64,000 bases of DNA from Candidatus Multivorans sp. (GTDB lineage Bacteria > Acidobacteriota > Thermoanaerobaculia > Multivoradales > Multivoraceae), in the NCBI GenBank assembly GCA_965220845.1, contig CBDCRA010000005.1, positions 16 to 64,015 of the forward strand, read 5' to 3'. Made by a program: the position numbers and the translations under genes. Under the pieces are notes generated by a model. It was not told the DNA's origin. It worked only from the letters and a program-made list of their open reading frames with translations, and did no database searches. Of this stretch, positions 6,218 through 50,235 are shown piece after piece (the stretch's first letter is position 1; each line of letters begins with the position of its first letter).

Positions 6218-7468
6218 GTGGCGCACGCAGCCAACCTCCCTGCCGTGGCCGGGATCGACCTCTGCGATCACGACCGGTTCGCGCGGGGCGTGCCGCACGA
6301 GTGGTTCGCGCGGCTGCGGGCGGAGGCGCCGGTGTACTGGCAGCCGGAGCCGAAGGGCCCGGGCTTCTGGTCCATCACGCGGCACGAGGACGTCGTCCGC
6401 GTCTCGAAGGATCCCAAGCGGTTCTCGTCCGAAGTCGGCGGCACGTCGCTCGAGGACCTGGAGCCGGAGCACGTCGAGGCGCGCAAGTCGATGATCGACA
6501 TGGACCCGCCGCGCCACTACAAGCTGCGCGCCCTGATCAACAAGCGCTTCCTGCCGCGGGCGCTGAAGGCCTTCTCGGGCCACATTCGGCAACTGTTCCG
6601 GGGCATTCTCGAGTCGGCGATCGCCCGGGGCGACTTCGACTTCGTCGACGACGTGGCGGTCGAGCTGCCGATGCGGGTGTTCGCCGAGATGCTGGGCGCG
6701 CCCCAGGAGGACCGGCGGCTCATCGTCGACATCGGCAACCGGATCCTCGGCGCGACCGACCCGGAGTACGTCGACGACTACGAGACGGAGCGGGAGCGCT
6801 TCAAGCACCTGCCGTTCTCGAGCCCGGCCAGCCTGGAGATGTTCGAGTACGGGCGCAAGCTGGCGGCCGCGCGGCGCGCCGAACCGCGCGACGACATCGT
6901 GACCGACCTGGTGTTCGCGGAGGTCGACGGCGAGCCGCTGACGCCGCACGAGTTCGACCTGTACTTCCTGCTGCTGGCGGCGGCCGGCAACGAGACGACC
7001 CGCCACTCGCTGTCGGGCGGCATACACGAGCTGCTGCGCCACCCCGACCAGGCGGAGCGCGTCGTCGCCGGCGACGAGGATCTGGCGACCACGGCCGCCG
7101 ACGAGATCCTGCGGATGGTGACGGCGGTTCACCACTTCCGGCGCACGGCGACCGAGGACGTCGAGATGCGCGGCGAGGTCATCCGCGCCGGCGACAAGGT
7201 CGCGATGTGGTACACGAGCGCCAACCGGGACGAGGACGTGTTCGAGGATCCCCACCGTTTCGATGTCGGCCGCAGGCCGAATCGGCACCTGACCTTCGGC
7301 ATCGGGCCGCACTTCTGCCTCGGCGCGTACCTGGCGAGGCTTGAGATCAGGATCGCGCTGGAGGAGCTGCGGCCGCATCTCGGTCGGCTCGAACTGGTCT
7401 CGGAGCCGGAGCGTCTGCGCTCGAACTTCTTCAACGGCATCAAGCACATGGGGGTTCGCCACCGGTGA
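6218..7468 (+). CDS. Cytochrome P450 monooxygenase
   Basis: Heme-thiolate signature FGIGPHFCLGAYLA, EXXR (ELLRH) and I-helix AGNETT. Probable GTG start at 6218, just after the GS-like stop. The track start at 6083 overlaps the upstream gene. Confidence 0.85.
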   Translation: MAHAANLPAVAGIDLCDHDRFARGVPHEWFARLRAEAPVYWQPEPKGPGFWSITRHEDVVRVSKDPKRFSSEVGGTSLEDLEPEHVEARKSMIDMDPPRHYKLRALINKRFLPRALKAFSGHIRQLFRGILESAIARGDFDFVDDVAVELPMRVFAEMLGAPQEDRRLIVDIGNRILGATDPEYVDDYETERERFKHLPFSSPASLEMFEYGRKLAAARRAEPRDDIVTDLVFAEVDGEPLTPHEFDLYFLLLAAAGNETTRHSLSGGIHELLRHPDQAERVVAGDEDLATTAADEILRMVTAVHHFRRTATEDVEMRGEVIRAGDKVAMWYTSANRDEDVFEDPHRFDVGRRPNRHLTFGIGPHFCLGAYLARLEIRIALEELRPHLGRLELVSEPERLRSNFFNGIKHMGVRHR

Positions 7469-38871: not shown

Positions 38872-39399
38872 GTGACAAGGAAGAACAACGTCAGTTGGAA
38901 GCCCGACTACTACCTCTACAGCGTCCTCCTGCCCAAGCGGGCGGGTCTGATCAGGGACATAGAGGACTCAGGCAAGAGAAACCGAGAACGACGGAGCGAT
39001 GACTACCACGGAGTACAGACGCGGGCTGCCTACTACTGTGAGGTCGCGCTGAAGTGTCTCATCTCGGCACTCGGTGCACAGCCTCAATGGACACATGACC
39101 TGCACGTTCTGTACAAGAAGGCTGACCAGCTATATCCAGGAGACCTTGATCGGGAGATTCAGGCCCGAATAGAGAGGCTGGCTGAGTCTGCTCCCGTGCT
39201 GGAGGCCTTTCACTTCGCCGAGCCTTCTGGTGTCACCAAGACCGCGAGGAACTACTATAAGAAGTCTCGCTATCCCAAAGCCGTGCCCCCAGGACAGTGG
39301 AGCGATCCTCAGCTTGCTCCTCACCACCTGTTCGCTGTTGGCGACGGAGCAGCAGCGCTAACAGAAGAGCTCCTGAGGTCCTCATCGAGGGCAGTCTGA
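38872..39399 (+). CDS. Hypothetical protein, possible HEPN-like domain
   Basis: 175 aa, in the lower-GC islet. The segment CEVALKCLISALGAQPQWTHDLHVLYKKA resembles the HEPN core helix pair, which is weak evidence. Confidence 0.4.
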   Translation: MTRKNNVSWKPDYYLYSVLLPKRAGLIRDIEDSGKRNRERRSDDYHGVQTRAAYYCEVALKCLISALGAQPQWTHDLHVLYKKADQLYPGDLDREIQARIERLAESAPVLEAFHFAEPSGVTKTARNYYKKSRYPKAVPPGQWSDPQLAPHHLFAVGDGAAALTEELLRSSSRAV

Positions 39400-39888: not shown

Positions 39889-41046
39889 TTAGTAGTCCAT
39901 GTTCGCGTGCCTGTCGTAGAGAGCTGCCTGTTCGGCGAGAAACGTGCCCATTTCCTCTTCGGACTGCATCGCGCGCGCGTATTTTCCGTCCTTGGCGAAA
40001 CTCAGGTTCAAAGGAAGTCCGCTCTCTTGGATGTAGAGCTTGGCCGGTGATCGGGATCCGGACCAGAGATGCTCTATGAATCGTTCGATCAACTCAACGG
40101 TCTCGTGTTCGACAAAGTCGATACCTCGTCCGAATCGGGGTGTGCCGCTCTGTCCTTCGTCCGGCAGCGTTAGTGGAACAGCTCCCACGCTAGAGTGAAA
40201 CAGCAATGTCTCCCGGCTTCTTCCGAATGAACCATGCGCGTCGAAGTTCCTGATCTGCTGGCGGATCGCCATGAGGTCTTTGAAGTACTCCAGCGTGACT
40301 GCATCGGCACAGTCCATTGCCAACTTGAACTTCTTGGGCCAGTTCTTGTCGGCGGCTCTGCGCACGTCCGCACCAGTCACCAGGTCGCCTTGTAGGATAG
40401 CGATGTGAACGAAGACGTGATCAGTCCAGCTAAAGAAGGTGTCGATCGCCGTGAGCGCGAGCCACTTCGCTTTTCGGTTTAGCTCCAGTGCAGGAGTGAA
40501 GTAGAGGCTTACGCCGGGCGGCAGCTCACGGTGCAGGGTTTCGTCGTTCCCGAGGGCGGTCGCCTCTGCCCGCGTTTCGATGTACTGGTCGCGGTAGAAG
40601 CGGTAGCGATCATAGAGTTCGGTCGAGCGGTTGAGTACGGTAAGAGCGGAGCCATTGGCGGCTTGATCGGCTAGCGACTTGAAGTAGGGCTCGGCGATCG
40701 CTACGGCAGCTGTTAGGCGCGTTACGATGGTCTGAGCGGGCTCCTCGTCGAGTACCTTGTGTTGCGCGAAGATACCGAAACCACTCTTTCGGTGCTCGAG
40801 GAGGAAGGCTCGGCCGTTGAAGTCAAGGAGTACGCCCCACGCGATTTTCTCGGCGCGGCCAAGATTCTTGTAGCCAAGAAGGTCAACGAGTAGGAAGTAG
40901 ACCAGATAGTAGGGCGGTAGGGAGTCGCTGGCGCGGGTCCACTTGGCGGAGAGTAGGAAGTCCCGAGGGGCGCGAGTGGTGGAGTCCACTGGTTTGATCG
41001 GGTGGAGGATTGTGCGGGCGGCGTTCTGGATTTCGGAGGTGTCCAC
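39889..41046 (-). CDS. Hypothetical protein (385 aa), no recognisable domain
   Basis: Long ORF with clearly lower GC than the surrounding genome. Divergent from the RtcR-like regulator gene and adjacent to the IS remnant. Confidence 0.5.
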   Translation of the reverse strand: MDTSEIQNAARTILHPIKPVDSTTRAPRDFLLSAKWTRASDSLPPYYLVYFLLVDLLGYKNLGRAEKIAWGVLLDFNGRAFLLEHRKSGFGIFAQHKVLDEEPAQTIVTRLTAAVAIAEPYFKSLADQAANGSALTVLNRSTELYDRYRFYRDQYIETRAEATALGNDETLHRELPPGVSLYFTPALELNRKAKWLALTAIDTFFSWTDHVFVHIAILQGDLVTGADVRRAADKNWPKKFKLAMDCADAVTLEYFKDLMAIRQQIRNFDAHGSFGRSRETLLFHSSVGAVPLTLPDEGQSGTPRFGRGIDFVEHETVELIERFIEHLWSGSRSPAKLYIQESGLPLNLSFAKDGKYARAMQSEEEMGTFLAEQAALYDRHANMDY

Positions 41047-41213
41047 GATTTGGCGGCTTTCACGGAGTAGAGCTTGGGGAAGCAGGTTCTAGGTGGTAGG
41101 GACTCGGCAGGGTTGGCGAGCTGTGGGATTCTAGGCCGTCTTCGCCTCGTACGTGGGGACCTTTAGAGCAAGAGATCTTGCGTGGTCAACAACTATCCTT
41201 GTACCCTCGACGG

Positions 41214-42725
41214 ATGCACAAGGTCCTCATCTCATGGATCGGCACCACGGATCTTCGCGCACCCGAGGAGGGCGCGGAGGTCGGCAGGGGGCCCGTCGCA
41301 CAGGCCCTCGAAGAGCTCCGCTTCGACGAGGCTCGCCTGCTGACGAACCATGAGCCGGAGACGGTCGAGCCGTACCGCTCGTGGCTTCGGGCCCGAGCCC
41401 CGGAAGTCCAGATTCAGGTAGCGCAGGAGGCCCTGAGCAGCCCGACGGACTTCGGAGAGATCTACGCTGCCGCTGTTGGCGCTTGCGGCGCCGTGGTGGA
41501 GAAGGCGCCGGTCGCCAGCTCGCTCACGTTCCACTTGAGCCCCGGTACACCCGCGATGGCGGCGATCTGGGTCATTCTGGCCAAGACCCGTTTCCCCGCG
41601 GAGCTCATCGAATCCTCCCGCCAGCACGGGGTCCGCGTCGCGTCCGTACCGTTCGACATCAGCGCGGACTTCCTTCCCGATCTCCTCCGCCGGCCCGACC
41701 GGGAACTAGAGCGTCTATCCGCCGGCCTGGCGTCCGAAGCGCCGGAGTTCGATGAGATCCTGCACCGGAGTGCGGCGATGAGACGGGTCATCCTGCGCGC
41801 TCGGCGGGTCGCCCCCCGCTCCGTACCCGTCCTGATCGAGGGAGAAACCGGCACGGGCAAGGAACTGGTGGCGAGAGCGATCCACCGCGCCAGTCCCCGT
41901 CGCGACCGGCCTTTCGTGGCGGTGAACTGCGGCGCCCTCTCGCCCGAACTCGTTGAGTCCGAGCTCTTCGGGCACGAGCGGGGCGCCTTCACCGGCGCCT
42001 CGGCGCGCCGCGACGGCCACTTCGTCGCTGCCGATGGTGGCACGCTCTTTCTCGACGAGATAGGCGAGCTTCCTCTATCCGCCCAGGTGAAGCTCCTCCG
42101 CGCCTTGCAGGAAGGGGAGGTCCTGCCCGTTGGAAGTTCTCGGCCGCGCTCCGTGAACGTCAGGCCGATCGCCGCGACCAACCGTTCCCTCCCGTCGGAA
42201 GTAGGAGCCGGTCGTTTCCGCGAAGATCTCTTCTACCGTCTGGCCGTCGCAGTTCTTCGACTGCCGTCACTCCGCGAACGGGCCGAGGACCTGGCGCTCC
42301 TGATCGACCGGCTCCTGGAACGGGTCAATCGTGAGAGCGAACAACAACCGGGTCAGGTGCACAAGAAGCTGTCTGCTGGCGCAAGGAACCTCCTGCTCTC
42401 GCACCCGTGGCCGGGAAACGTGCGGGAGCTTCAGAACACCTTGAGCCGAGCTGCCTTGTGGTCCTCGGAGGAGACTCTGACGGTGGACGATGTGCGCGAG
42501 GCGCTGCTGCCCGTCGCAGCGAGCGACCGGGCCGAGACTGTGCTGAATCGCCCTCTGGGCAACGGCCTCGACGTTCGGGCTGTCCTGGCGGGCGTGGCCC
42601 GTCACTATCTGGAGCGCGCCCTGGACGAAGCCGGAGGCAACAAGACGGAGGCCGCCCGACTCGTGGGGCTTCCCAGCTACCAGACGCTCACCAACTGGAT
42701 GAAGCGTTATGGTCTGACCCCGTGA
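41214..42725 (+). CDS. RtcR-like sigma-54-dependent transcriptional activator: N-terminal CARF-like domain + AAA+ sigma-54 interaction domain + C-terminal HTH
   Basis: N-terminus ([14 protein letters not shown] ... [32 protein letters not shown]) aligns by eye with the E. coli RtcR CARF region (...HITTGTHVAQICWFLLAEARYLPARLIQSS). Central [21 protein letters not shown] and ESELFGHE motifs. Fis-type HTH at the C-terminus. ATG 41214 (the track gives 41178). Confidence 0.8.
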
Positions 42726-42741
42726 TGGCACGCCGTTTGCT
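42726..42741 (+). promoter_or_regulatory. Sigma-54 (-24/-12) promoter TGGCACGCCGTTTGCT
   Basis: Exact match to the TGGCACG-N4-TTGCW consensus, with GG and GC separated by 10 nt. It begins one nucleotide after the regulator stop and ends about 34 nt before the hsdR-like start. Confidence 0.8.
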
Positions 42742-42774
42742 CTCCAGTCTCCTCGCATGTTCGAGGAAGCCCCG

Positions 42775-45516
42775 ATGACGCCGCGCGAGACCGAGGCGGA
42801 TGCCCGGATCGTGATCGACGACCTGCTGAAGCAGGCCGGCTGGAATCCGAGCGACAAGTCCATGGTCGCGACGGAAGCGCCGGCGGTCATGCCTGACCGG
42901 CCCGGCCCGCTGGTGGACCGCTACGGCGCCCGTCCGTTCGAGACGCACGCCCCCGCCTACGACCTCGTCGCCTCCGCCGGCGACTTCGGCCCGGACCGGC
43001 TCGTCGGCAAGGCCGGCGACGAGATCGGCTGGGCGCCCGTGCCAAGCTCGGTACATCTGACGCGCGACCACTTCGTAGCTCGCGTCGAGGGGCGTTCGAT
43101 GGAACCGGCGATCCCGGACGGGTCCTGGTGCCTGTTCCGGGCCGACCGGGGAGGAAGCCGCGAAGGCAAGCGGGTTCTCGTCTGGCACCGGGGCTGCACC
43201 GACCCGGCACTCGGTGGAGAGTTCTCGATCAAGCGCTACACGAGCAGGAAGGCCGGCAACGGCGACGGGACGTGGCGACACCGCGAGATCCGCCTGGAAC
43301 CGCTCAACCCGGATCCCGAGTTCCGCCCCCTCGTCTTCTCCCCGGAGGCCGAGGACGATCTGCGCGTGGTGGGTGAGCTCGTGGAAGTCCTCGACCTGGA
43401 GGAAGCCGGCGACGGCGCCGCGGCCGGTGGCGGACGGGCCGACTACGTCCTCTACGACGGCCGCGGCCGACCGCTGGCCGTGATCGAGGCCAAGCGGAAC
43501 GCGATCCACCCCTACGTGGCCAAGCAGCAGGCTCTCCCCTACGCGAAAGCGCTCGACGCGCCCTTCATCTTCCTCGCCAACGGCGAACAGACCTACTTCT
43601 GGGACTGGAAGAACGACGATGCCCGCGAGGTCGCCAGCTTCTTCTCGCAGCGCGACCTGGAACGGCTGGTCGAAGCCCAGGAGAACCGCAAGCCGCTCGC
43701 CACCATCGAGATTCCCGAGCACTACAGTCGCCAGGGCGAGATCCGCACCCTCCGCCCGTACCAGACGGACGCCATGCGGGCGCTCGACCACGCGCTGGAG
43801 CTCGGCAAGCGGCGCTTTCTCATCGAGCTGCCGACCGGCACGGGCAAGACGGATCTCACCTGTCTCTACCTGAAGCGGCTCTTCGAGGCAGGCTGGGTCG
43901 AACGGGTGCTCGTCCTGGTCGACCGGGAGCAGTTGGCCAAGCAGTTCCTGGAGGCGGTGCAGGACCTGCTCCCACAGCACTCCAGCTACTGGATGCGGTC
44001 GGGCATGGCGCGTCAGGAGCAGCAGATCACGGTTGCCTTGCTTCAGACGATGATCGGCCGGATCGAGGAATACACGGCCGGCTACTTCGACGTCGTGGTC
44101 ACCGACGAGTGCCACCGCTCGATCTACGACGGCTGGAAGCCCGCGCTGACCCGCTTCGAGGCGGTGCACGTCGGCCTGACCGCCACGCCGGCCAACTACA
44201 TCGAGCGCAACACCTACGACTTCTACCACTGCAAGCCGGGCAAGCCCGACTTCAGCTTTCCGATCCAGGACGCCTTCCGCGAGGGCTACCTGGCGCCGTA
44301 CTGCTTCGCGACCGGCATCACCGAACTGGTGGCCGAGGGCGCCGAAGTGGACGACGAGCACTACGACCCGGCCGCGTTCGAGAAGAAGTGGACCAACGAA
44401 GCCAGCAATCGCCTGATGATGAAGGAGTTCGACGAACTTGCCTGGGCGACGTTCGAGGAGTTGGCCCCGCAGCAGAACCCCGGCCCGGGCAAGTCGATCG
44501 TCTTTGCGATCAGCAAGCACCACGCCGCGCGTCTGGCCGAGTACCTCAACGAACTCCACCCGGAACACAAGGGACGCTACGCAAAGGTCATCACGTCCGA
44601 CGTACCGGATCCAGGTGCTCTGATCCGCCGGTTCAAGCACGAGCCCTACCCGCAAGTGGCCGTGAGCGTCGGCATGCTCGACACCGGCTTCGACTGCCGC
44701 GAAGTGCTCCACCTGGTGCTCTGCCGGCGGGTGCGCAGCCCCATCCTGTACCAGCAGATGCGTGGTCGCGGCACCCGCATGGCGCCCCACATCGACAAGC
44801 GGAAGTTCGTGATCTACGACTTTTTCCGCAACCACCAGTACTTCAACGACAGCGACACGGACGCATTCACGGGTGCCGCCGGGGGACATGCGCCCGCGAC
44901 TCCCGATAGTCCTTCGACGTACCGCGGCGACCTGGTGGAACTCGGTCTCGAGGACGAGTGGCTCGAAGCGGTCGGATACGTCGAGGTCGGTCCGGAAGGC
45001 GAACGGGTCGACAAGGAGAAGTACAAGAGCGATTGGCAGGAAGCGGTCCAGGCCCGAGTGGCCGACGACCCGCTGCTCCGCAAGGTGCGGGACGAAGAGG
45101 CGCTCGAGGCCGGCGAGGAAGAGGAACTCGCCCGGCGCCTGAACCGGCCGGAGCGCTACTTCAACGAGGACAACCTCCGCCGCGCCTACCGTGATCCGAG
45201 CGGAACGCTCGTTGATTTCATCCGCGCCGCTCTCGGCACGCTGCGCATCAAGAGCCGCGAGGAGAAGCTCGAAGAAGCGTTCCGCGCTTGGCTCGTGTCG
45301 CGTACGTTCACCCCGCGTCAGGCCGAGTACCTGAGTCTGCTGAAGAACCGGGGCATCGCCACCGGGCTCGTGCGCATCGAAGACCTGTTCGAGCCGCCGC
45401 TTTCGATTCTCGACGTCGCCGGCAAGGGAGTGGCTCTCTTCGGCGAGCAGGGTCTGAGTGATGTCGTGGACGACCTGAACGAAGGTGTCTTCCTGCCTGC
45501 GAAGCGGGCGAGCTGA
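42775..45516 (+). CDS. hsdR: Type I restriction enzyme R subunit (HsdR-like) with a LexA-like S24 peptidase domain inserted into the N-terminal PD-(D/E)xK nuclease region
   Basis: HsdR_N start motif (ARIVIDDLLKQAGWNP). Then about 190 aa of S24 fold (GRSMEPAIPDG Ser, FSIKRY Lys, a candidate A-G cleavage site in LVASAGDFG), then the rest of HsdR_N (ADYVLYDGRGRPLAVIEAKR). SF2 helicase motifs I (LPTGTGKT) and II (DECH) and a C-terminal domain. Probable start at ATG 42775 (SD GAGGAAG); the track gives 42757. Confidence 0.8.
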   Translation: MTPRETEADARIVIDDLLKQAGWNPSDKSMVATEAPAVMPDRPGPLVDRYGARPFETHAPAYDLVASAGDFGPDRLVGKAGDEIGWAPVPSSVHLTRDHFVARVEGRSMEPAIPDGSWCLFRADRGGSREGKRVLVWHRGCTDPALGGEFSIKRYTSRKAGNGDGTWRHREIRLEPLNPDPEFRPLVFSPEAEDDLRVVGELVEVLDLEEAGDGAAAGGGRADYVLYDGRGRPLAVIEAKRNAIHPYVAKQQALPYAKALDAPFIFLANGEQTYFWDWKNDDAREVASFFSQRDLERLVEAQENRKPLATIEIPEHYSRQGEIRTLRPYQTDAMRALDHALELGKRRFLIELPTGTGKTDLTCLYLKRLFEAGWVERVLVLVDREQLAKQFLEAVQDLLPQHSSYWMRSGMARQEQQITVALLQTMIGRIEEYTAGYFDVVVTDECHRSIYDGWKPALTRFEAVHVGLTATPANYIERNTYDFYHCKPGKPDFSFPIQDAFREGYLAPYCFATGITELVAEGAEVDDEHYDPAAFEKKWTNEASNRLMMKEFDELAWATFEELAPQQNPGPGKSIVFAISKHHAARLAEYLNELHPEHKGRYAKVITSDVPDPGALIRRFKHEPYPQVAVSVGMLDTGFDCREVLHLVLCRRVRSPILYQQMRGRGTRMAPHIDKRKFVIYDFFRNHQYFNDSDTDAFTGAAGGHAPATPDSPSTYRGDLVELGLEDEWLEAVGYVEVGPEGERVDKEKYKSDWQEAVQARVADDPLLRKVRDEEALEAGEEEELARRLNRPERYFNEDNLRRAYRDPSGTLVDFIRAALGTLRIKSREEKLEEAFRAWLVSRTFTPRQAEYLSLLKNRGIATGLVRIEDLFEPPLSILDVAGKGVALFGEQGLSDVVDDLNEGVFLPAKRAS

Positions 45517-45536: not shown

Positions 45537-47186
45537 ATGGACCACAGCCTGCGGCGCAAGCTCGACCGGATCACCGACATCCTCTGGGCGGGGGGCGTCA
45601 CGAACCCCGTCACCTACATCGAGCAGATCTCCTATCTCATCTACCTCAAGCTGCTCGACGAAGAAGAGGCCAACCGCGAACTGCGGGCGCGACTCGCCGG
45701 CGGCAACGGCGCGCGCCTCTTCCCCCTCCAGGCGGAGCGATACCGCTGGAGCAAGTGGCGGTTCAAGAGCGGGAACGACCTGCGCGACTTCGTGCGGGAC
45801 GAGGTCTTCCCCTACATGGCCTCGCTCGTGAAGGACGAGCCGCAGGTAGCCGGCTATTTCCGCGATGCCGTGCTGGAGATCACCGATCCCAACGTGCTCA
45901 AGCAGGTGATCGACGAACTCGACGGCATCGAGTTTCAGAAGCTCGGGCCGGACGTCAAGGGCGATGTCTTCGAGTACCTCCTGACGCATTTGGGCCAGTC
46001 GGCCTTGAACGGCCAGTTCCGCACGCCGCGCCAGATTCGGGCGTTCATGGTGCAGATGACGGACCCGGATCTCGGAGACACGATCTACGACCCCGCTTGC
46101 GGCACGGCCGGCTTCCTGATCGACGCCGTGGACCACATCCTCGCTCGCTACAGCGAGAACCCCGAGGAGGTCCCCATCTACGGTGAGGACTGGCTGGAGA
46201 AACGCGGGCAGACTCCGGAGGAAGCCAAGGCCGAGATCCCGAATCTCCAGACGTACCGCAAGGGAGCCGGTGACCTACTGCCGGATTGGAAACGGCTCGA
46301 AGCATCCATCCACGGCACCGACGTTTCCCGCCAGATGATGCGCGTCGCCGTGATGAACCTGGTGCTGCACGGCATCCGCGGTGCTCGCGTCAAGCGCGCC
46401 AACGTGCTCTCCGAGATGAGCGGGCTTACCGAGGACGACCTGCATCGGCAGTACAAGGTGATTCTCTCGAACCCGCCGTTTGCGGGCCAGATCCCAAGCG
46501 AGTCGGTCCGAGCCGATCTCCCGACCAGGTCGAAGAAGAGCGAACTCTTGTTCCTGTCCCTGATGATGCGCTCGCTCGCCCCCGGCGGACGCTGCGCCGT
46601 GGTGGTGCCGGAGGGCCTGCTCTTCGGCTCCACGAGGGCCCATCGGGAACTGCGCGAGAGGCTGTTGCACGAGTTCGAAGTGCTGGCGGTCGTCTCGCTG
46701 CCAGCGGGAGTGTTCAAGCCCTACGCGGGCGTCAAGACATCGGTGCTCGTCTTCCGGCGCCCCAGGACCGAGCTTGAAGACGGCGACGGCGCGACGCGAC
46801 AGGTCTGGTTCTACGAGATCCGGAACGACGGATACGACCCGGACAAGATCCAGCAAGGCGGGCGTCCCGAGACGCCGTTCGAGAACGACATCCCTGCTCT
46901 ACTGGCAGCTTGGGCCGCGTACAGCGGTGCGCGCTTCGAGGAGCCGCCTGGCGTCCATGTGGGGAGTGTTCTTCCCCCTGGGAGTGAAGAGCCTCGGTCG
47001 TGGTTCGCTCCTCTCGATCGCATCGCCGACAACGACTTCAGCTTGGCCGCTTCTCGCTACAAGCCCATCGTTGCCGAGGAGGTTCCACGAGAGGATCCGG
47101 CTCAGTTGATCCGAGAGGTTATGGCGATTGAAGAGAGGATCGCCTCGGGACTCGAAGGCCTTCTGGAAGAGGTCGAAGGATCGTGA
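45537..47186 (+). CDS. hsdM: Type I R-M N6-adenine DNA methyltransferase subunit (HsdM)
   Basis: HsdM_N region and NPPF catalytic motif (ILSNPPFAG). 549 aa. Confidence 0.9.
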   Translation: MDHSLRRKLDRITDILWAGGVTNPVTYIEQISYLIYLKLLDEEEANRELRARLAGGNGARLFPLQAERYRWSKWRFKSGNDLRDFVRDEVFPYMASLVKDEPQVAGYFRDAVLEITDPNVLKQVIDELDGIEFQKLGPDVKGDVFEYLLTHLGQSALNGQFRTPRQIRAFMVQMTDPDLGDTIYDPACGTAGFLIDAVDHILARYSENPEEVPIYGEDWLEKRGQTPEEAKAEIPNLQTYRKGAGDLLPDWKRLEASIHGTDVSRQMMRVAVMNLVLHGIRGARVKRANVLSEMSGLTEDDLHRQYKVILSNPPFAGQIPSESVRADLPTRSKKSELLFLSLMMRSLAPGGRCAVVVPEGLLFGSTRAHRELRERLLHEFEVLAVVSLPAGVFKPYAGVKTSVLVFRRPRTELEDGDGATRQVWFYEIRNDGYDPDKIQQGGRPETPFENDIPALLAAWAAYSGARFEEPPGVHVGSVLPPGSEEPRSWFAPLDRIADNDFSLAASRYKPIVAEEVPREDPAQLIREVMAIEERIASGLEGLLEEVEGS

Positions 47187-48454
47187 TGATGTGGCCGGAA
47201 CAGCCTCTAGGTGCTCTATGCGTCCCTACGGACCAACGTGACCCTCGACGAGCCCCCACGGACACGTTTCGCTACGTAGACATCGCCGGAATCGACCGGG
47301 CGTCCAAGACGATCAAGCCACCCCCGATACTCCAAGGCGCGAAAGCTCCAAGCCGGGCTCGGAAGGTCATTCGTGGGGACGACGTGCTCGTCTCCACCGT
47401 GCGGCCCAACCTAAACGCGGTCGCGCTAGTCCCAAAGGAACTCGACGGCGAGATCGCGTCCACGGGATTCTGCGTCCTTCGGGCGAATCGGCAGGTTCTT
47501 GAACCTCGATACCTCTACTACCGGGTCGCGGCTCCCGACTTCGTCGCTGAGTTGAGCTCGAAGGTCCGTGGTGCCAGCTACCCGGCGGTGTCAGACCGCG
47601 ACGTCAAGAACCTGAAGATCGGACTTCCCAGCGTTTCCGAGCAGCGCCGGATTGTCACTCTGCTCGATCAGGCCAACCGCCTCCGACAACTCCGGTCCGA
47701 AGCCGACGAGAGAGCAGAGCGAGTTCTGCCGGTTCTCCTGACGCGCATCCTGGGTCGTCCTGAGACGTGGCCAGGTGACTCGGGCTGCAAGCCCCTGGGC
47801 TCACTGGCGTCTTTCGTCAGTGGAGCGACCCCGCCCAAGTCAGTCGAGGGTTTCTGGCAGGGCGGCGTGCCCTGGGTGTCGCCCAAGGACATGAAGACGG
47901 ACTTCCTCTCGGACAGCCAGGACCATGTCTCAGAGGCTGCAGTCCAGGAAACCAACTTGAGGTTGATCGAGCGAGGTAGCACGCTTGTCGTCGTGCGGGG
48001 GATGATCCTCGCCCGCACTGTTCCACTGGCGATCAACTTGACTGCCGTGACAATCAACCAGGACATTAAGGCGCTCCTTCCGAAGAGGGGACCGATCAAT
48101 GGCACCTACCTCTGGGCGGCACTCACCGTGGCGAAGCATCAGTTGAGAGGTCTCGTCCGGACTGCGGGACATGGCACGCGGAAGCTCGACACACCCGACC
48201 TCATGCAGTTCTGGATTCCTCTTCCAACGCTCGATCAGATCCGACAGGTGAGTTCCGCTGTTGAAACTCATCGGCATCTCGGCGAGAGCCGGCAGAAGGG
48301 CGCGCTGGCGATCAACCGCCTTTTCCGGCTGCTCTTGAGCCGGGCCTTCAGCGGTTCTCTGACGTCCGTCTGGCGCGAAGGCCAAGCTGTGGAGCTACTC
48401 GAGGAGAGTTCGCGCGACCACTCTGGCTCCGGCCACATGGAGGGTCTGGCGTGA
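47183..48454 (+). CDS. hsdS: Type I R-M specificity subunit (HsdS), two target-recognition domains
   Basis: Two TRDs separated and followed by conserved coiled regions (RLRQLRSEADERAER ... NRLFRLLLSRAFSG). 4-nt overlap with hsdM. Confidence 0.85.
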   Translation: MMMWPEQPLGALCVPTDQRDPRRAPTDTFRYVDIAGIDRASKTIKPPPILQGAKAPSRARKVIRGDDVLVSTVRPNLNAVALVPKELDGEIASTGFCVLRANRQVLEPRYLYYRVAAPDFVAELSSKVRGASYPAVSDRDVKNLKIGLPSVSEQRRIVTLLDQANRLRQLRSEADERAERVLPVLLTRILGRPETWPGDSGCKPLGSLASFVSGATPPKSVEGFWQGGVPWVSPKDMKTDFLSDSQDHVSEAAVQETNLRLIERGSTLVVVRGMILARTVPLAINLTAVTINQDIKALLPKRGPINGTYLWAALTVAKHQLRGLVRTAGHGTRKLDTPDLMQFWIPLPTLDQIRQVSSAVETHRHLGESRQKGALAINRLFRLLLSRAFSGSLTSVWREGQAVELLEESSRDHSGSGHMEGLA

Positions 48455-50235
48455 GCCTTGCCGCCCTTCGGCTCGCCAACTTCAAGGCGTTCGGGCCATC
48501 TCAGCGGGTTCCGTTGCGGCCGATCACGCTCGTGTTCGGAGCCAACAGTTCTGGAAAGTCCTCGATACTGCATGCGATGGCACTCGCGCACCATGCGGTT
48601 GAGACAGGCGACCTCGATACACAAAGGACACGTGTGGGCGGCGAGTCCGTGGATCTGGGCGGCTTCCGCCAGTACGTGCATCGGGGACAACTCGACAGTC
48701 AAGTGGAGATGGCGTTCGAGCTGGATCCAGGGAAGCTCTCGGGGAAGCTGGCGAGTTTACTGGGAGCGGCCCGTGTGCCGCTCGTTGAGCTTGCGATCGG
48801 GGGCCGCTTCGCCTACTTGAGGGAAACGGTTTACGGGAGACGAGACCTCGACTGGGAAAGGGCCTTTGGCGGCGTCGGTGTCGAACGCTTCACGCTGGAA
48901 GTTGACGGCGCTTCGATGCTCTCGATGAGTACGCGCGTCGACGGTGACCTCAGGCTCGATCGGCTGGACCACGCGCATCCGGTGTTCCGTGAGATCTTCC
49001 GCGGGATTCTGGCCCTCGCCACGACGGCGCGTACGGTGCGGGAGGACGACTTCACCGAGCTGGCTCCCGTGCTGGACGCGCTGGCTCCGGACACGACAGC
49101 TCGTAGGGAGGGCCTGTTCCCTCGAATCGAGAATCCGAACGCCGAGAAGGTCGGGAGAAGCAACAGCCTCCTACCTGTCAGCAGCGGGCGCCGCCGGGAA
49201 GATCTGGCAGGGGCGGCGCGGCTCCTCTTGCCTGCCGTCCTGCACGATCTGGTAGGCGGCCTTTCGACCGCGCTAGAGGACGAGATTCGCCGGCTTCGCT
49301 ACTTGGGACCGCTGAGGTCCTATCCCCCGCGGCACCTGGCCTTCTCGCAGCACCATGACGCGAACTGGTTGGCGGGAGGCGGCTACGCCTGGGATGTTGT
49401 GCGCACGCGCAAGGACATCAGGGATCGCGTGAACCAATGGCTCGGGGACGCGGACCATATGAAGACGCCCTATGAACTGAAGGTTCGCGAACTGCTGCCT
49501 GCAGATACGCTCGCCCCCCAACTTGCAACTGGCCTTGCGGATTCGCTGAAGGACCTGACGCGAAGACTACTGGTGGAGTTGGAGGGTGACGGTCGGTCTG
49601 AGGCACTCTCGCTGGCGCTTGAGTCGGTCCGTCAGGAGATCGAGTGGGGATCTGTCGACGTCGGCGACTTGAGTGACATCGATGTCGGAGAGCTGGTTGG
49701 ATCGCTTCTCGACGCGGAGCCGACGAGCGAAGAGTGGGTTCAGAGAATCGTCGAAGCCCGCCGTGAGATCATCCAGGATCTGGTTCTGGTCGACAAGCGC
49801 TCCAACACTCCTGTGAGCCACCGCGACGTAGGAATCGGCGTGAGCCAGGTCCTGCCGGTGCTGGTCTCCGCCTACGCCTCTGCGGCGAAGCTCATCGCCA
49901 TCGAGCAACCCGAAATTCACCTGCATCCGGCCCTCCAAGCGGAACTTGGCGACGTGTTCCTTGAGTCGGCACTGGGCGAGTCCGCCAACCGGTTCCTCAT
50001 CGAGACGCACAGCGAGCACCTCATCCTGAGAATTCTGCGCCGCATCCGCGAAACGTCGGAGGGCGACCTACGGCCGGACGCGAGGCCGGTCAGACCCGAG
50101 GACGTAGCGGTCCTCTACGTTCAGCCAGGGCCGGAGGGCGCCGAGATCATCGAACTGCCGATCACGCCAGACGGCGAGTTCGAGCGTCGGTGGCCTGACG
50201 GGTTCTTCGCCGAGCGGGCGAAAGAGCTCTTCTGA
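48451..50235 (+). CDS. ABC/OLD-type AAA_21 ATPase with large insertion (DUF3696-like C-terminus); candidate abortive-infection ATPase (AbiLi/RloA-like)
   Basis: Walker A GANSSGKSS at the N-terminus. Walker B/D-loop/H-loop at the C-terminus (LIAIEQPEIHLHP ... IETHSEH). No TOPRIM domain. Start overlaps the hsdS stop. Confidence 0.7.
   Translation: MSLAALRLANFKAFGPSQRVPLRPITLVFGANSSGKSSILHAMALAHHAVETGDLDTQRTRVGGESVDLGGFRQYVHRGQLDSQVEMAFELDPGKLSGKLASLLGAARVPLVELAIGGRFAYLRETVYGRRDLDWERAFGGVGVERFTLEVDGASMLSMSTRVDGDLRLDRLDHAHPVFREIFRGILALATTARTVREDDFTELAPVLDALAPDTTARREGLFPRIENPNAEKVGRSNSLLPVSSGRRREDLAGAARLLLPAVLHDLVGGLSTALEDEIRRLRYLGPLRSYPPRHLAFSQHHDANWLAGGGYAWDVVRTRKDIRDRVNQWLGDADHMKTPYELKVRELLPADTLAPQLATGLADSLKDLTRRLLVELEGDGRSEALSLALESVRQEIEWGSVDVGDLSDIDVGELVGSLLDAEPTSEEWVQRIVEARREIIQDLVLVDKRSNTPVSHRDVGIGVSQVLPVLVSAYASAAKLIAIEQPEIHLHPALQAELGDVFLESALGESANRFLIETHSEHLILRILRRIRETSEGDLRPDARPVRPEDVAVLYVQPGPEGAEIIELPITPDGEFERRWPDGFFAERAKELF

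Follow-up and report, generated by a model that had tools for sequence, protein, structure and literature searches.

What would a LexA-like autopeptidase do inside the nuclease domain of a type I restriction enzyme? The question is raised by hsdR in a 64,000-nucleotide stretch of contig CBDCRA010000005.1 from Candidatus Multivorans sp. (the window), whose product, HsdR, carries a predicted peptidase module of family S24 between the first helix of its nuclease fold and the remainder of that fold. Residues of HsdR were counted from the Met at 42775. A start at the in-frame ATG of 42757 would lengthen HsdR by 6 amino acids (aa; the 919-aa reading); the start at 42775 was preferred because a Shine-Dalgarno sequence (GAGGAAG, 42763-42769) stands ahead of its ATG, because hsdR homologues begin at the equivalent Met, and because the transcript is predicted to start near 42752 from the sigma54 promoter at 42726-42741. 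The gene and the parts of its N-terminal region are as follows.

42775 to 45516, plus strand: hsdR, open reading frame (ORF) of 913 aa, EcoAI-like (type IB-like) type I R subunit with S24 insert
42802 to 42849, plus strand: N-terminal HsdR helix alpha1, ARIVIDDLLKQAGWNP, aa 10-25, of the PD-(D/E)xK domain, conserved in relatives
42895 to 43431, plus strand: insertion, aa 41-219, composed of a flexible linker, the S24 module and a flexible Gly/Ala/acidic linker, from alignment
42922 to 43392, plus strand: S24 (LexA/UmuD/CI-like) autopeptidase module, about aa 50-206, including the cleavage-site strand and loop, from Pfam, AlphaFold2 (AF2), Foldseek and hhalign
42976 to 42981, plus strand: predicted scissile bond Ala68-Gly69, in SAGD 67-70, from alignment and the model loop
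43096 to 43098, plus strand: Ser108, predicted nucleophile, in GRSMEP 106-111, aligned to LexA S119
43231 to 43233, plus strand: Lys153, predicted general base, in SIKRY (IKRY 152-155), aligned to LexA K156
43441 to 43494, plus strand: PD-(D/E)xK core, from Asp223 (ADYVL, aa 222-226) to Glu238-Ala-Lys240 (EAK, 238-240), from alignment

Helix ARIVIDDLLKQAGWNP was kept in both insert-bearing and insert-less relatives and matched helix 26-47 of the Vibrio vulnificus HsdR structure 3h1t; the first AF2 model predicted it at aa 7-20. The spacing between this helix and the nuclease core was 196 residues in the window HsdR, against about 22 in P0045 and P0072, close relatives that lack the insert, and about 27 in 3h1t, which gives a net insertion of about 178 aa. 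The insertion was absent from P0045 and P0072, the flanks of which were 72-73% identical to the window HsdR and which passed directly from '...DKSMVGTE...' into 'GRADYVLYD'. It sits in the loop that joins helix alpha1 to strand beta1, the first of the PD-(D/E)xK fold. The HSDR_N nuclease domain is consequently non-contiguous in HsdR, being split by about 178 aa, and the HSDR_N match was restricted to profile positions 126-196 (HsdR 226-288 in the 919-aa reading), beginning only after the insert. An earlier note on this DNA, made from the letters alone, had placed a canonical HsdR_N helix at the start of the protein and had counted about 190 residues where 20-30 are normal; both points held, and its motifs, coordinates and spacings were right to within a few residues.

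Profile and structure searches assigned the insert to S24. Pfam Peptidase_S24 (PF00717; gathering cut-off 23.3 bits) matched the whole protein at 27.2 bits (E 3.4e-6) and the insert alone at 31.5 bits (E 1.6e-7). With Pfam on the insert alone, S24 was the sole domain detected, and no endonuclease or Hint family was found; a reading of the insert as an intein or mobile element was unsupported for that reason. Sequence-only searching of the PDB was too weak to call (LexA at E 0.11 with the clade profile and at E 0.004 with a broader profile), so that structure prediction was required. A first AF2 model, covering aa 1-324 and made from 19 sequences, had no matches other than lambda CI, LexA and UmuD and served as a first hint of the fold; its predicted local distance difference test score (pLDDT) was 59.6, and 41-57 in the helix, with helix and linkers unreliable. 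It was superseded by a model of the module alone, made from 53 diverse sequences (pLDDT 84.8; predicted template modelling score, pTM, 0.80). The top 27 PDB matches of that model in Foldseek were all LexA, CI or UmuD (probability 1.0; target-normalised TM-score at most 0.77), and the alignments covered 155-160 columns, including LexA fragments with the cleavage-site region.

Alignment of the module to E. coli LexA with hhalign (92% probability, E 5e-7) paired Ser108 with S119, Lys153 with K156 and Pro60 with P77; the AAG of the loop lay one residue out of register with A-A84-G85 of LexA. Ala68 and Gly69 lie 40 and 39 residues before Ser108, and Lys153 lies 45 residues after it. Ser108 and Lys153 were invariant in the clade of insert-bearing HsdR (17/17 sequences), and the scissile pair was Ala-Gly in 15/17 and Gly-Gly in 2/17. 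The sole internal stretch of low confidence in the module model was aa 66-78, the loop that bears Ala68-Gly69. The cleavage loop of LexA is reported to alternate between a non-cleavable and a cleavable state, and by the model the loop at aa 66-78 is its counterpart. The insert is thus, as judged from alignment and predicted fold, an autonomous LexA/UmuD/CI-type S24 module with a complete dyad and its own substrate loop. These results bear out the proposal in the earlier note of an S24 domain within the HsdR nuclease domain, with Pfam above its cut-off and an S24 fold from AF2 and Foldseek. The Ser of GRSMEP and the Lys of IKRY that the note had named, 'about 50' residues apart, are Ser108 and Lys153 and match the LexA dyad, and the Ala-Gly that it had placed about 39 residues upstream of the Ser lies in the cleavage loop. 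A dyad lacking conservation and a fold other than S24, which the note had held to be fatal to its proposal, were both checked; the dyad was invariant in the clade and the fold was S24.

With LexA, lambda CI and UmuD (MEROPS S24) the module shares the fold, the positions of the Ser-Lys dyad and a mobile Ala-Gly or Cys-Gly loop N-terminal to the core; Ala-Gly is the cleavage site of LexA and CI, and Cys-Gly is that of UmuD. It differs from LexA in its cargo, which is an enzyme, here the HsdR nuclease domain. No helix-turn-helix family was detected in HsdR, where the HsdR helix stands on the N-terminal side of the module and the nuclease and helicase on its C-terminal side; on these domain assignments the module resembles the protease half of LexA, and HsdR is not a LexA-type repressor. 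Unlike in LexA, CI and UmuD, the module in HsdR is internal and tethered at both ends. It further carries a DP.(T/L)GG insert before the Lys strand and a W.H..I.L.P.N hairpin, both of which LexA lacks, and by sequence it is an S24 subfamily of its own, whose profiles match LexA no better than at E 0.004-0.1.

Among 1.84 billion cluster representatives (clusters at 50% identity), a profile built from the insert matched 1,977 at E<=1e-3, of which 1,223 reached E<=1e-10; the match of the insert is therefore far above chance. Family statistics were taken from the best 145 representatives, mutually at most 50% identical. The Ser nucleophile was present in 143/145 and the Lys general base in 141/142; P1 was Ala in 124 and Cys in 14 (138/140), P1' was Gly in 128/141, and about 90% of the representatives had the Ala/Cys-Gly pair. 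The module ended at most 20 aa from the C-terminus in 125/131 near-full modules and was internal in 6/131, two of which came from the clade of the window HsdR. The predicted upstream product ended in AAA (91), VAA (17), AAC (14) or IAA (7) of 140. Peptidase_S24 of Pfam matched 57/58 surveyed members, and public annotations of family members read 'LexA', 'predicted helicase' or 'hypothetical protein'.

The partners of the module were almost all DNA-targeting restriction or defence enzymes. They comprised Schlafen-group-3/DUF2075 helicases (AbiO/Nhi-like), ResIII or Type III Res-like enzymes with a C-terminal PD-(D/E)xK domain, Type ISP and MmeI/Eco57I-type IIG enzymes, McrBC-family (McrC-like) proteins, DruE-like helicases, HNH and PLD nucleases, and AlwI-like and AlbA_2 proteins; independent fusions were found at the C-terminus of a HindI-type HsdR (P0208) and on an HsdS subunit (P0220). 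Among the matches listed, phage contigs held only distant S24 proteins, at 24-33% identity over most of the module. Judged by these sequences, the window HsdR is one unusual internal copy of a large S24 subfamily that is normally C-terminal on defence enzymes. The sole plasmid or chromid record (L100, 4998-7468; Halomonas sp. PA16-9, NZ_CP040452.1) held an unannotated DUF2075-type helicase with the S24 module in a different frame, a frameshift lying near 7000, and was uninformative.

The reading given most weight, at a probability of roughly 0.5, is that the module is a self-cleaving off-switch, in which a RecA*-type trigger would lead through cleavage and exposure of an xAA degron to loss of the nuclease and to restriction alleviation. 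A signal, most likely a RecA filament on single-stranded DNA arising from DNA damage or recombination, as with LexA, CI and UmuD, would shift the cleavage loop into the active site, and HsdR would cut itself at Ala68|Gly69. The upstream fragment would then end in ...LVASA; in the wider family the corresponding ends would be AAA, VAA or IAA, which belong to the class of ClpX C-terminal degrons exposed by LexA and IrvR. In the usual C-terminal fusions the degron would fall on the whole enzyme and lead to its degradation. In the window HsdR it would fall on residues 1-68, and helix alpha1 would be drawn out of the nuclease fold by an unfoldase. With cutting lost and methylation by HsdM/HsdS going on, the net effect would be a restriction alleviation intrinsic to the enzyme, shielding the chromosome when repair or recombination makes unmethylated sites.

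S24 cleavage is known to lay bare terminal degrons, ClpXP C-degrons of LexA-like proteins among them (PMC7101444), and HsdR of type IA and type IB enzymes is proteolysed by ClpXP, which constitutes restriction alleviation after DNA damage (PMC12707154, PMC3874165, PMC4231737, PMC11109961). The cleavage product of LexA ends in VAA, and the upstream product of the module family likewise in xAA. An xAA-COOH degron would act on whatever lies upstream of it, which would explain why the module is nearly always the last domain and why it tolerates many partners; the wider family context points towards an off-switch by degron exposure over a simple mechanical separation of the helix, as the earlier note had pictured it. 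The outcome proposed here is that of alleviation of the EcoKI/EcoAI type, in which the R subunit is silenced by proteolysis when the chromosome is endangered. ClpXP of E. coli recognises HsdR in the act of translocating on unmodified DNA, without self-cleavage (PMC4231737), whereas the window HsdR carries a protease and cleavage site of its own, which would couple alleviation to the S24 trigger. The same logic is found in the LexA-like proteins IrvR and HdiR, in which autocleavage exposes a ClpXP C-degron that decides the fate of the N-terminal part; these are repressors, however, and the part degraded is a DNA-binding domain, where here it would be an enzyme or part of a nuclease fold.

Several points weigh against an off-switch of this kind. 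UmuD is a precedent for S24 cleavage that activates rather than inactivates. LexA has a pocket of six residues that receives F203 of RecA; the equivalents in HsdR (Y62, A66, F100, A102, L135 and F150) were conserved and hydrophobic, which is compatible with a RecA* trigger but is a weak test, as the same residues build the hydrophobic core of the fold and their conservation does not show RecA binding. The scissile pair was Gly-Gly instead of Ala-Gly in the two clade members given above, and P2 in the window HsdR is Ser (ASA versus AAA). The module is tethered at both ends within a 913-aa protein, and bulk attached to LexA hampers its docking in the RecA groove, so that access of RecA* to a doubly tethered module may by analogy be hindered. 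S24 autocleavage independent of RecA is known, in IrvR (PMC7101444). Helix alpha1 might stay bound after the cut and leave the nuclease active in the absence of an unfoldase, and the first AF2 model was too weak in the helix (pLDDT 41-57) to inform on its packing. Cleavage and all later steps are inferred from sequence; the mechanism of the earlier note, self-cleavage with a possible RecA* stimulus as a switch set off by damage or infection, is in the same way plausible.

A broader claim can be made tentatively, as a possible extension: S24-tagged defence enzymes in general would read the RecA-filament (SOS) signal, cleave themselves and be destroyed through the degron or re-programmed, which would amount to a general, protein-intrinsic brake on autoimmunity that bypasses transcription. 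It would take in type I R and S subunits, type ISP/IIG and type III-like enzymes, McrC, DruE-like and Nhi/DUF2075-like proteins, and HNH and PLD nucleases, and within the same tentative claim the window HsdR would be a variant whose cut takes away a single nuclease helix. S24 autopeptidases and type I HsdR are each known; what appears undescribed is the pairing of the two, together with the existence of a family of defence enzymes tagged with S24. No description of S24 domains on restriction or defence enzymes was found in open-access papers and bioRxiv, an absence that is not proof, and the comprehensive reviews of restriction-modification (R-M) systems PMC12707154 and PMC3874165 are silent on S24 or peptidase domains in restriction enzymes. 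DNA-cutting defences endanger their host when repair or recombination yields unmodified DNA, and how they are silenced at times of damage has been worked out for no more than a few E. coli enzymes, where ClpXP recognises the stalled motor. If true, self-cleavage would provide a direct post-translational link from damage signal to immune shut-off, and about 2,000 clusters, in some ten classes of defence enzymes and many phyla, would form an unannotated regulatory layer of prokaryotic immunity. The presence of the module on many DNA-cutting enzymes suggests a built-in proteolytic safety switch for bacterial immunity, and the module could serve in engineering as a portable, damage-responsive degradation tag.

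The transcriptional setting of hsdR bears on the other roles that may be proposed for the module. Two elements lie immediately upstream.

41178 to 42725, plus strand: RtcR-like sigma54-dependent activator with a CARF-type N-domain (Pfam Sigma54_activat, E 3.4e-68; weak RtcR)
42726 to 42741, plus strand: sigma54 -24/-12 promoter, TGGCACGCCGTTTGCT, the sole exact TGGCAC-N5-TTGCW match in the 64 kb

The promoter abuts the end of the activator gene (42725) and lies directly upstream of hsdR; an internal sigma54-like site at 43183, with 1 mismatch, was at chance level and was discarded. The NCBIfam RtcR model aligned to the full length of the activator at 367 bits, under its cut-off of 650. Of 17 insert-bearing loci, 12 had an RtcR-like activator ahead of hsdR, as did most insert-less loci, and the sigma54 promoter stood at the equivalent place in most related loci with or without S24. 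Since insert-less relatives have both, regulator and promoter predate the S24 insertion. From this arrangement the activator is the probable regulator of hsdR, and hsdR, perhaps with the whole type I operon, looks sigma54-inducible. An association of the RtcR-like family with R-M systems was reported in 2014 (Makarova et al., PMC4012209), and the gene upstream of hsdR belongs to the same family, as regulatory context only. The sigma54/RtcR-like control was considered as part of what is new at this locus and was set aside, being ancestral to the insert and of a published association.

The opposite role, that of an on-switch, is unlikely. Here HsdR would be a pro-enzyme, the nuclease of which is kept inactive by the S24 insert until RecA filaments, formed on phage intermediates or damaged DNA, trigger self-cleavage and activation. 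The conversion of UmuD to UmuD' is the textbook precedent, UmuD' was among the structural matches, and inducible sigma54/RtcR-like control suggests that restriction is not constitutive; classical restriction must nonetheless act as DNA enters, ahead of the formation of RecA filaments, and relatives that lack the insert presumably need no such step to be active. Partners of the abortive-infection type (AbiO/Nhi-like and DruE-like), which have no obvious methylation-based test of self and non-self, could need an infection signal, but for the fusions to HsdS and to the combined R-M enzymes of Type ISP/IIG late activation on an unmethylated chromosome would be suicidal. The extreme C-terminal placement and the xAA-COOH product also fit a degron, which activation does not need.

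A constitutive timer, though plausible, is given slightly less weight. Slow cleavage free of any co-protease would give HsdR a short lifetime, and a pulse from the sigma54/RtcR-like system would then produce a transient burst of restriction. The tight linkage of the HsdR clade to an inducible sigma54 promoter and activator accords with this, whereas in most of the family the module is a C-terminal fusion, and the contexts are unrelated and show no trace of sigma54 control. IrvR is a precedent, with constitutive, RecA-independent autocleavage followed by degradation by ClpXP, but the sequence of the module gives no indication of a fast-cleaving (hyper-cleavable) loop. Double tethering may disfavour docking to RecA*; the conserved positions of the F203 pocket are at least compatible with it.

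Still less probable is a structural role without cleavage, in which the S24 fold would serve dimerisation or interaction, for example by pairing R subunits or docking RecA filaments. The S24 domains of LexA, CI and UmuD are dimerisation modules according to textbooks, and Gly-Gly at the site in two clade members would be tolerated in such a role, but the Ser (143/145), the Lys (141/142) and the Ala/Cys-Gly pair (about 90%) would not be expected to persist without catalysis, and the whole cleavage-site strand and loop were kept beyond the beta-barrel core.

The reality of the insertion was assessed from its relatives. A search with residues 1-330 gave about 20 clusters with the architecture HSDR_N + S24 + ResIII, at 59-74% identity, and also many closer-scoring HsdR proteins in which only the flanks were covered. 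When genomes were scanned, 14 at species level proved to have the complete insert-bearing N-terminus; they belonged to Thermoanaerobaculia/Ca. Multivorans (93-96% identity), Vicinamibacteraceae, Aminicenantes, several Gammaproteobacteria and Latescibacterota. Intact insert-bearing ORFs of 900-913 aa were present in 12 of these 14, independently assembled genomes of at least three phyla, several of them complete chromosomes. The pairwise ratio of nonsynonymous to synonymous substitution rates (dN/dS) was 0.08-0.15 for the insert and 0.09-0.12 for the helicase motor, and a neighbour-joining tree of the core (aa 224-700) placed all insert-bearing genes in one clade. An assembly chimera, which the earlier note had named as a possible artefact, or else a pseudogene or a decaying, functionless mobile insertion, was rejected as very improbable: many database homologues were truncated or frameshifted (300-570 aa, with junk C-termini) and the sole plasmid example, from Halomonas, was frameshifted just ahead of the module, but the 12 genomes have the insert in an identical place within intact ORFs, its dN/dS is low as given, and the single clade spans Acidobacteriota, Gammaproteobacteria and Latescibacterota.

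One locus nested in the insert-bearing clade (L018, 6001-6300) had no S24 and instead a 40-residue Pro/Ala-rich linker in the same alpha1-beta1 loop, by which the loop is permissive and variable and the module can be lost. Tree and alignments fit a single acquisition in a permissive loop, with horizontal transfer and occasional loss; the insert is presumably accessory, as close relatives would work without the module. In the insert-less locus of Thioalkalivibrio sulfidiphilus ALJ17 (L025, 6001-6633) the spacer between helix and core was longer, with a match of 633 nt compared with about 500 nt elsewhere, and by its length this locus may have another, smaller insertion at that position. Distant loci that matched helix plus S24 (query 4/14-206) were discarded as HsdR; they were Type ISP/IIG enzymes with an ID..I..HGGWP motif and a C-terminal module. 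In two of these (L032, 2287-6609; L034, 5602-6588) 'EID..I..HGGWP' stood about 30 residues ahead of the C-terminal S24 module. It resembles the HsdR helix IDDLLKQAGWNP, which stands about 30 residues ahead of the insert; from the sequences this likeness may be a coincidence or a shared junction.

The remainder of HsdR was that of a type I R subunit, and its architecture is the same as that of type IB HsdR (EcoAI/EcoEI) apart from the insert. Pfam gave ResIII (E 1e-29), Helicase_C, EcoEI_R_C (E 4.9e-26), HSDR_N and Peptidase_S24, with two domains downstream of the nuclease.

43747 to 44781, plus strand: SF2 helicase motor (ResIII + Helicase_C), from Pfam
45016 to 45483, plus strand: EcoEI_R_C C-terminal domain, from Pfam (E 4.9e-26)

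D223, E238 and K240 were invariant columns in the alignment of insert-bearing and insert-less relatives, the nuclease core aligned with that of 3h1t from residue 74, and the nuclease triad and helicase motifs were intact. PADLOC REase_I matched HsdR (E 3.7e-77). The best NCBIfam family was restrict_EcoAI, at 246.5 bits and under the equivalog cut-off of 550; by these scores HsdR is a clade related to the EcoAI/FtnUII family and not an equivalog. An antisense ORF of 733 aa (42688-44889, minus strand) overlaps hsdR; it is rich in Arg, Gly, Ala and Val, like spurious ORFs at 68% GC, and its status as a gene was unsupported.

Downstream of hsdR the operon continues with three genes.

45537 to 47186, plus strand: hsdM, from Pfam (N6_Mtase, HsdM_N)
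47183 to 48454, plus strand: hsdS, from Pfam (Methylase_S, two stretches)
48451 to 50235, plus strand: AAA_15/AAA_21 + DUF3696 ATPase (OLD/AbiEii-like P-loop), fourth gene of the operon, overlapping the end of hsdS, from Pfam

The arrangement of hsdM and hsdS directly after hsdR was conserved in related loci, and a homologue of the ATPase followed hsdS in many of them (35-83% identity); the ATPase may lie outside the S24 feature. Upstream of the regulator lie a divergent gene for a 385-aa protein (39889-41046, minus strand), which had no Pfam or NCBIfam match and a 79% identical copy in locus L004, and a gene for a 175-aa HEPN-domain protein (38872-39399); both may be further content of a defence island. 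In two insert-bearing loci (L001, 12373-13087; L002, 12406-13126) a nucleotidyltransferase/HEPN pair, resembling MNT-HEPN toxin-antitoxin systems, stood between hsdM and hsdS.

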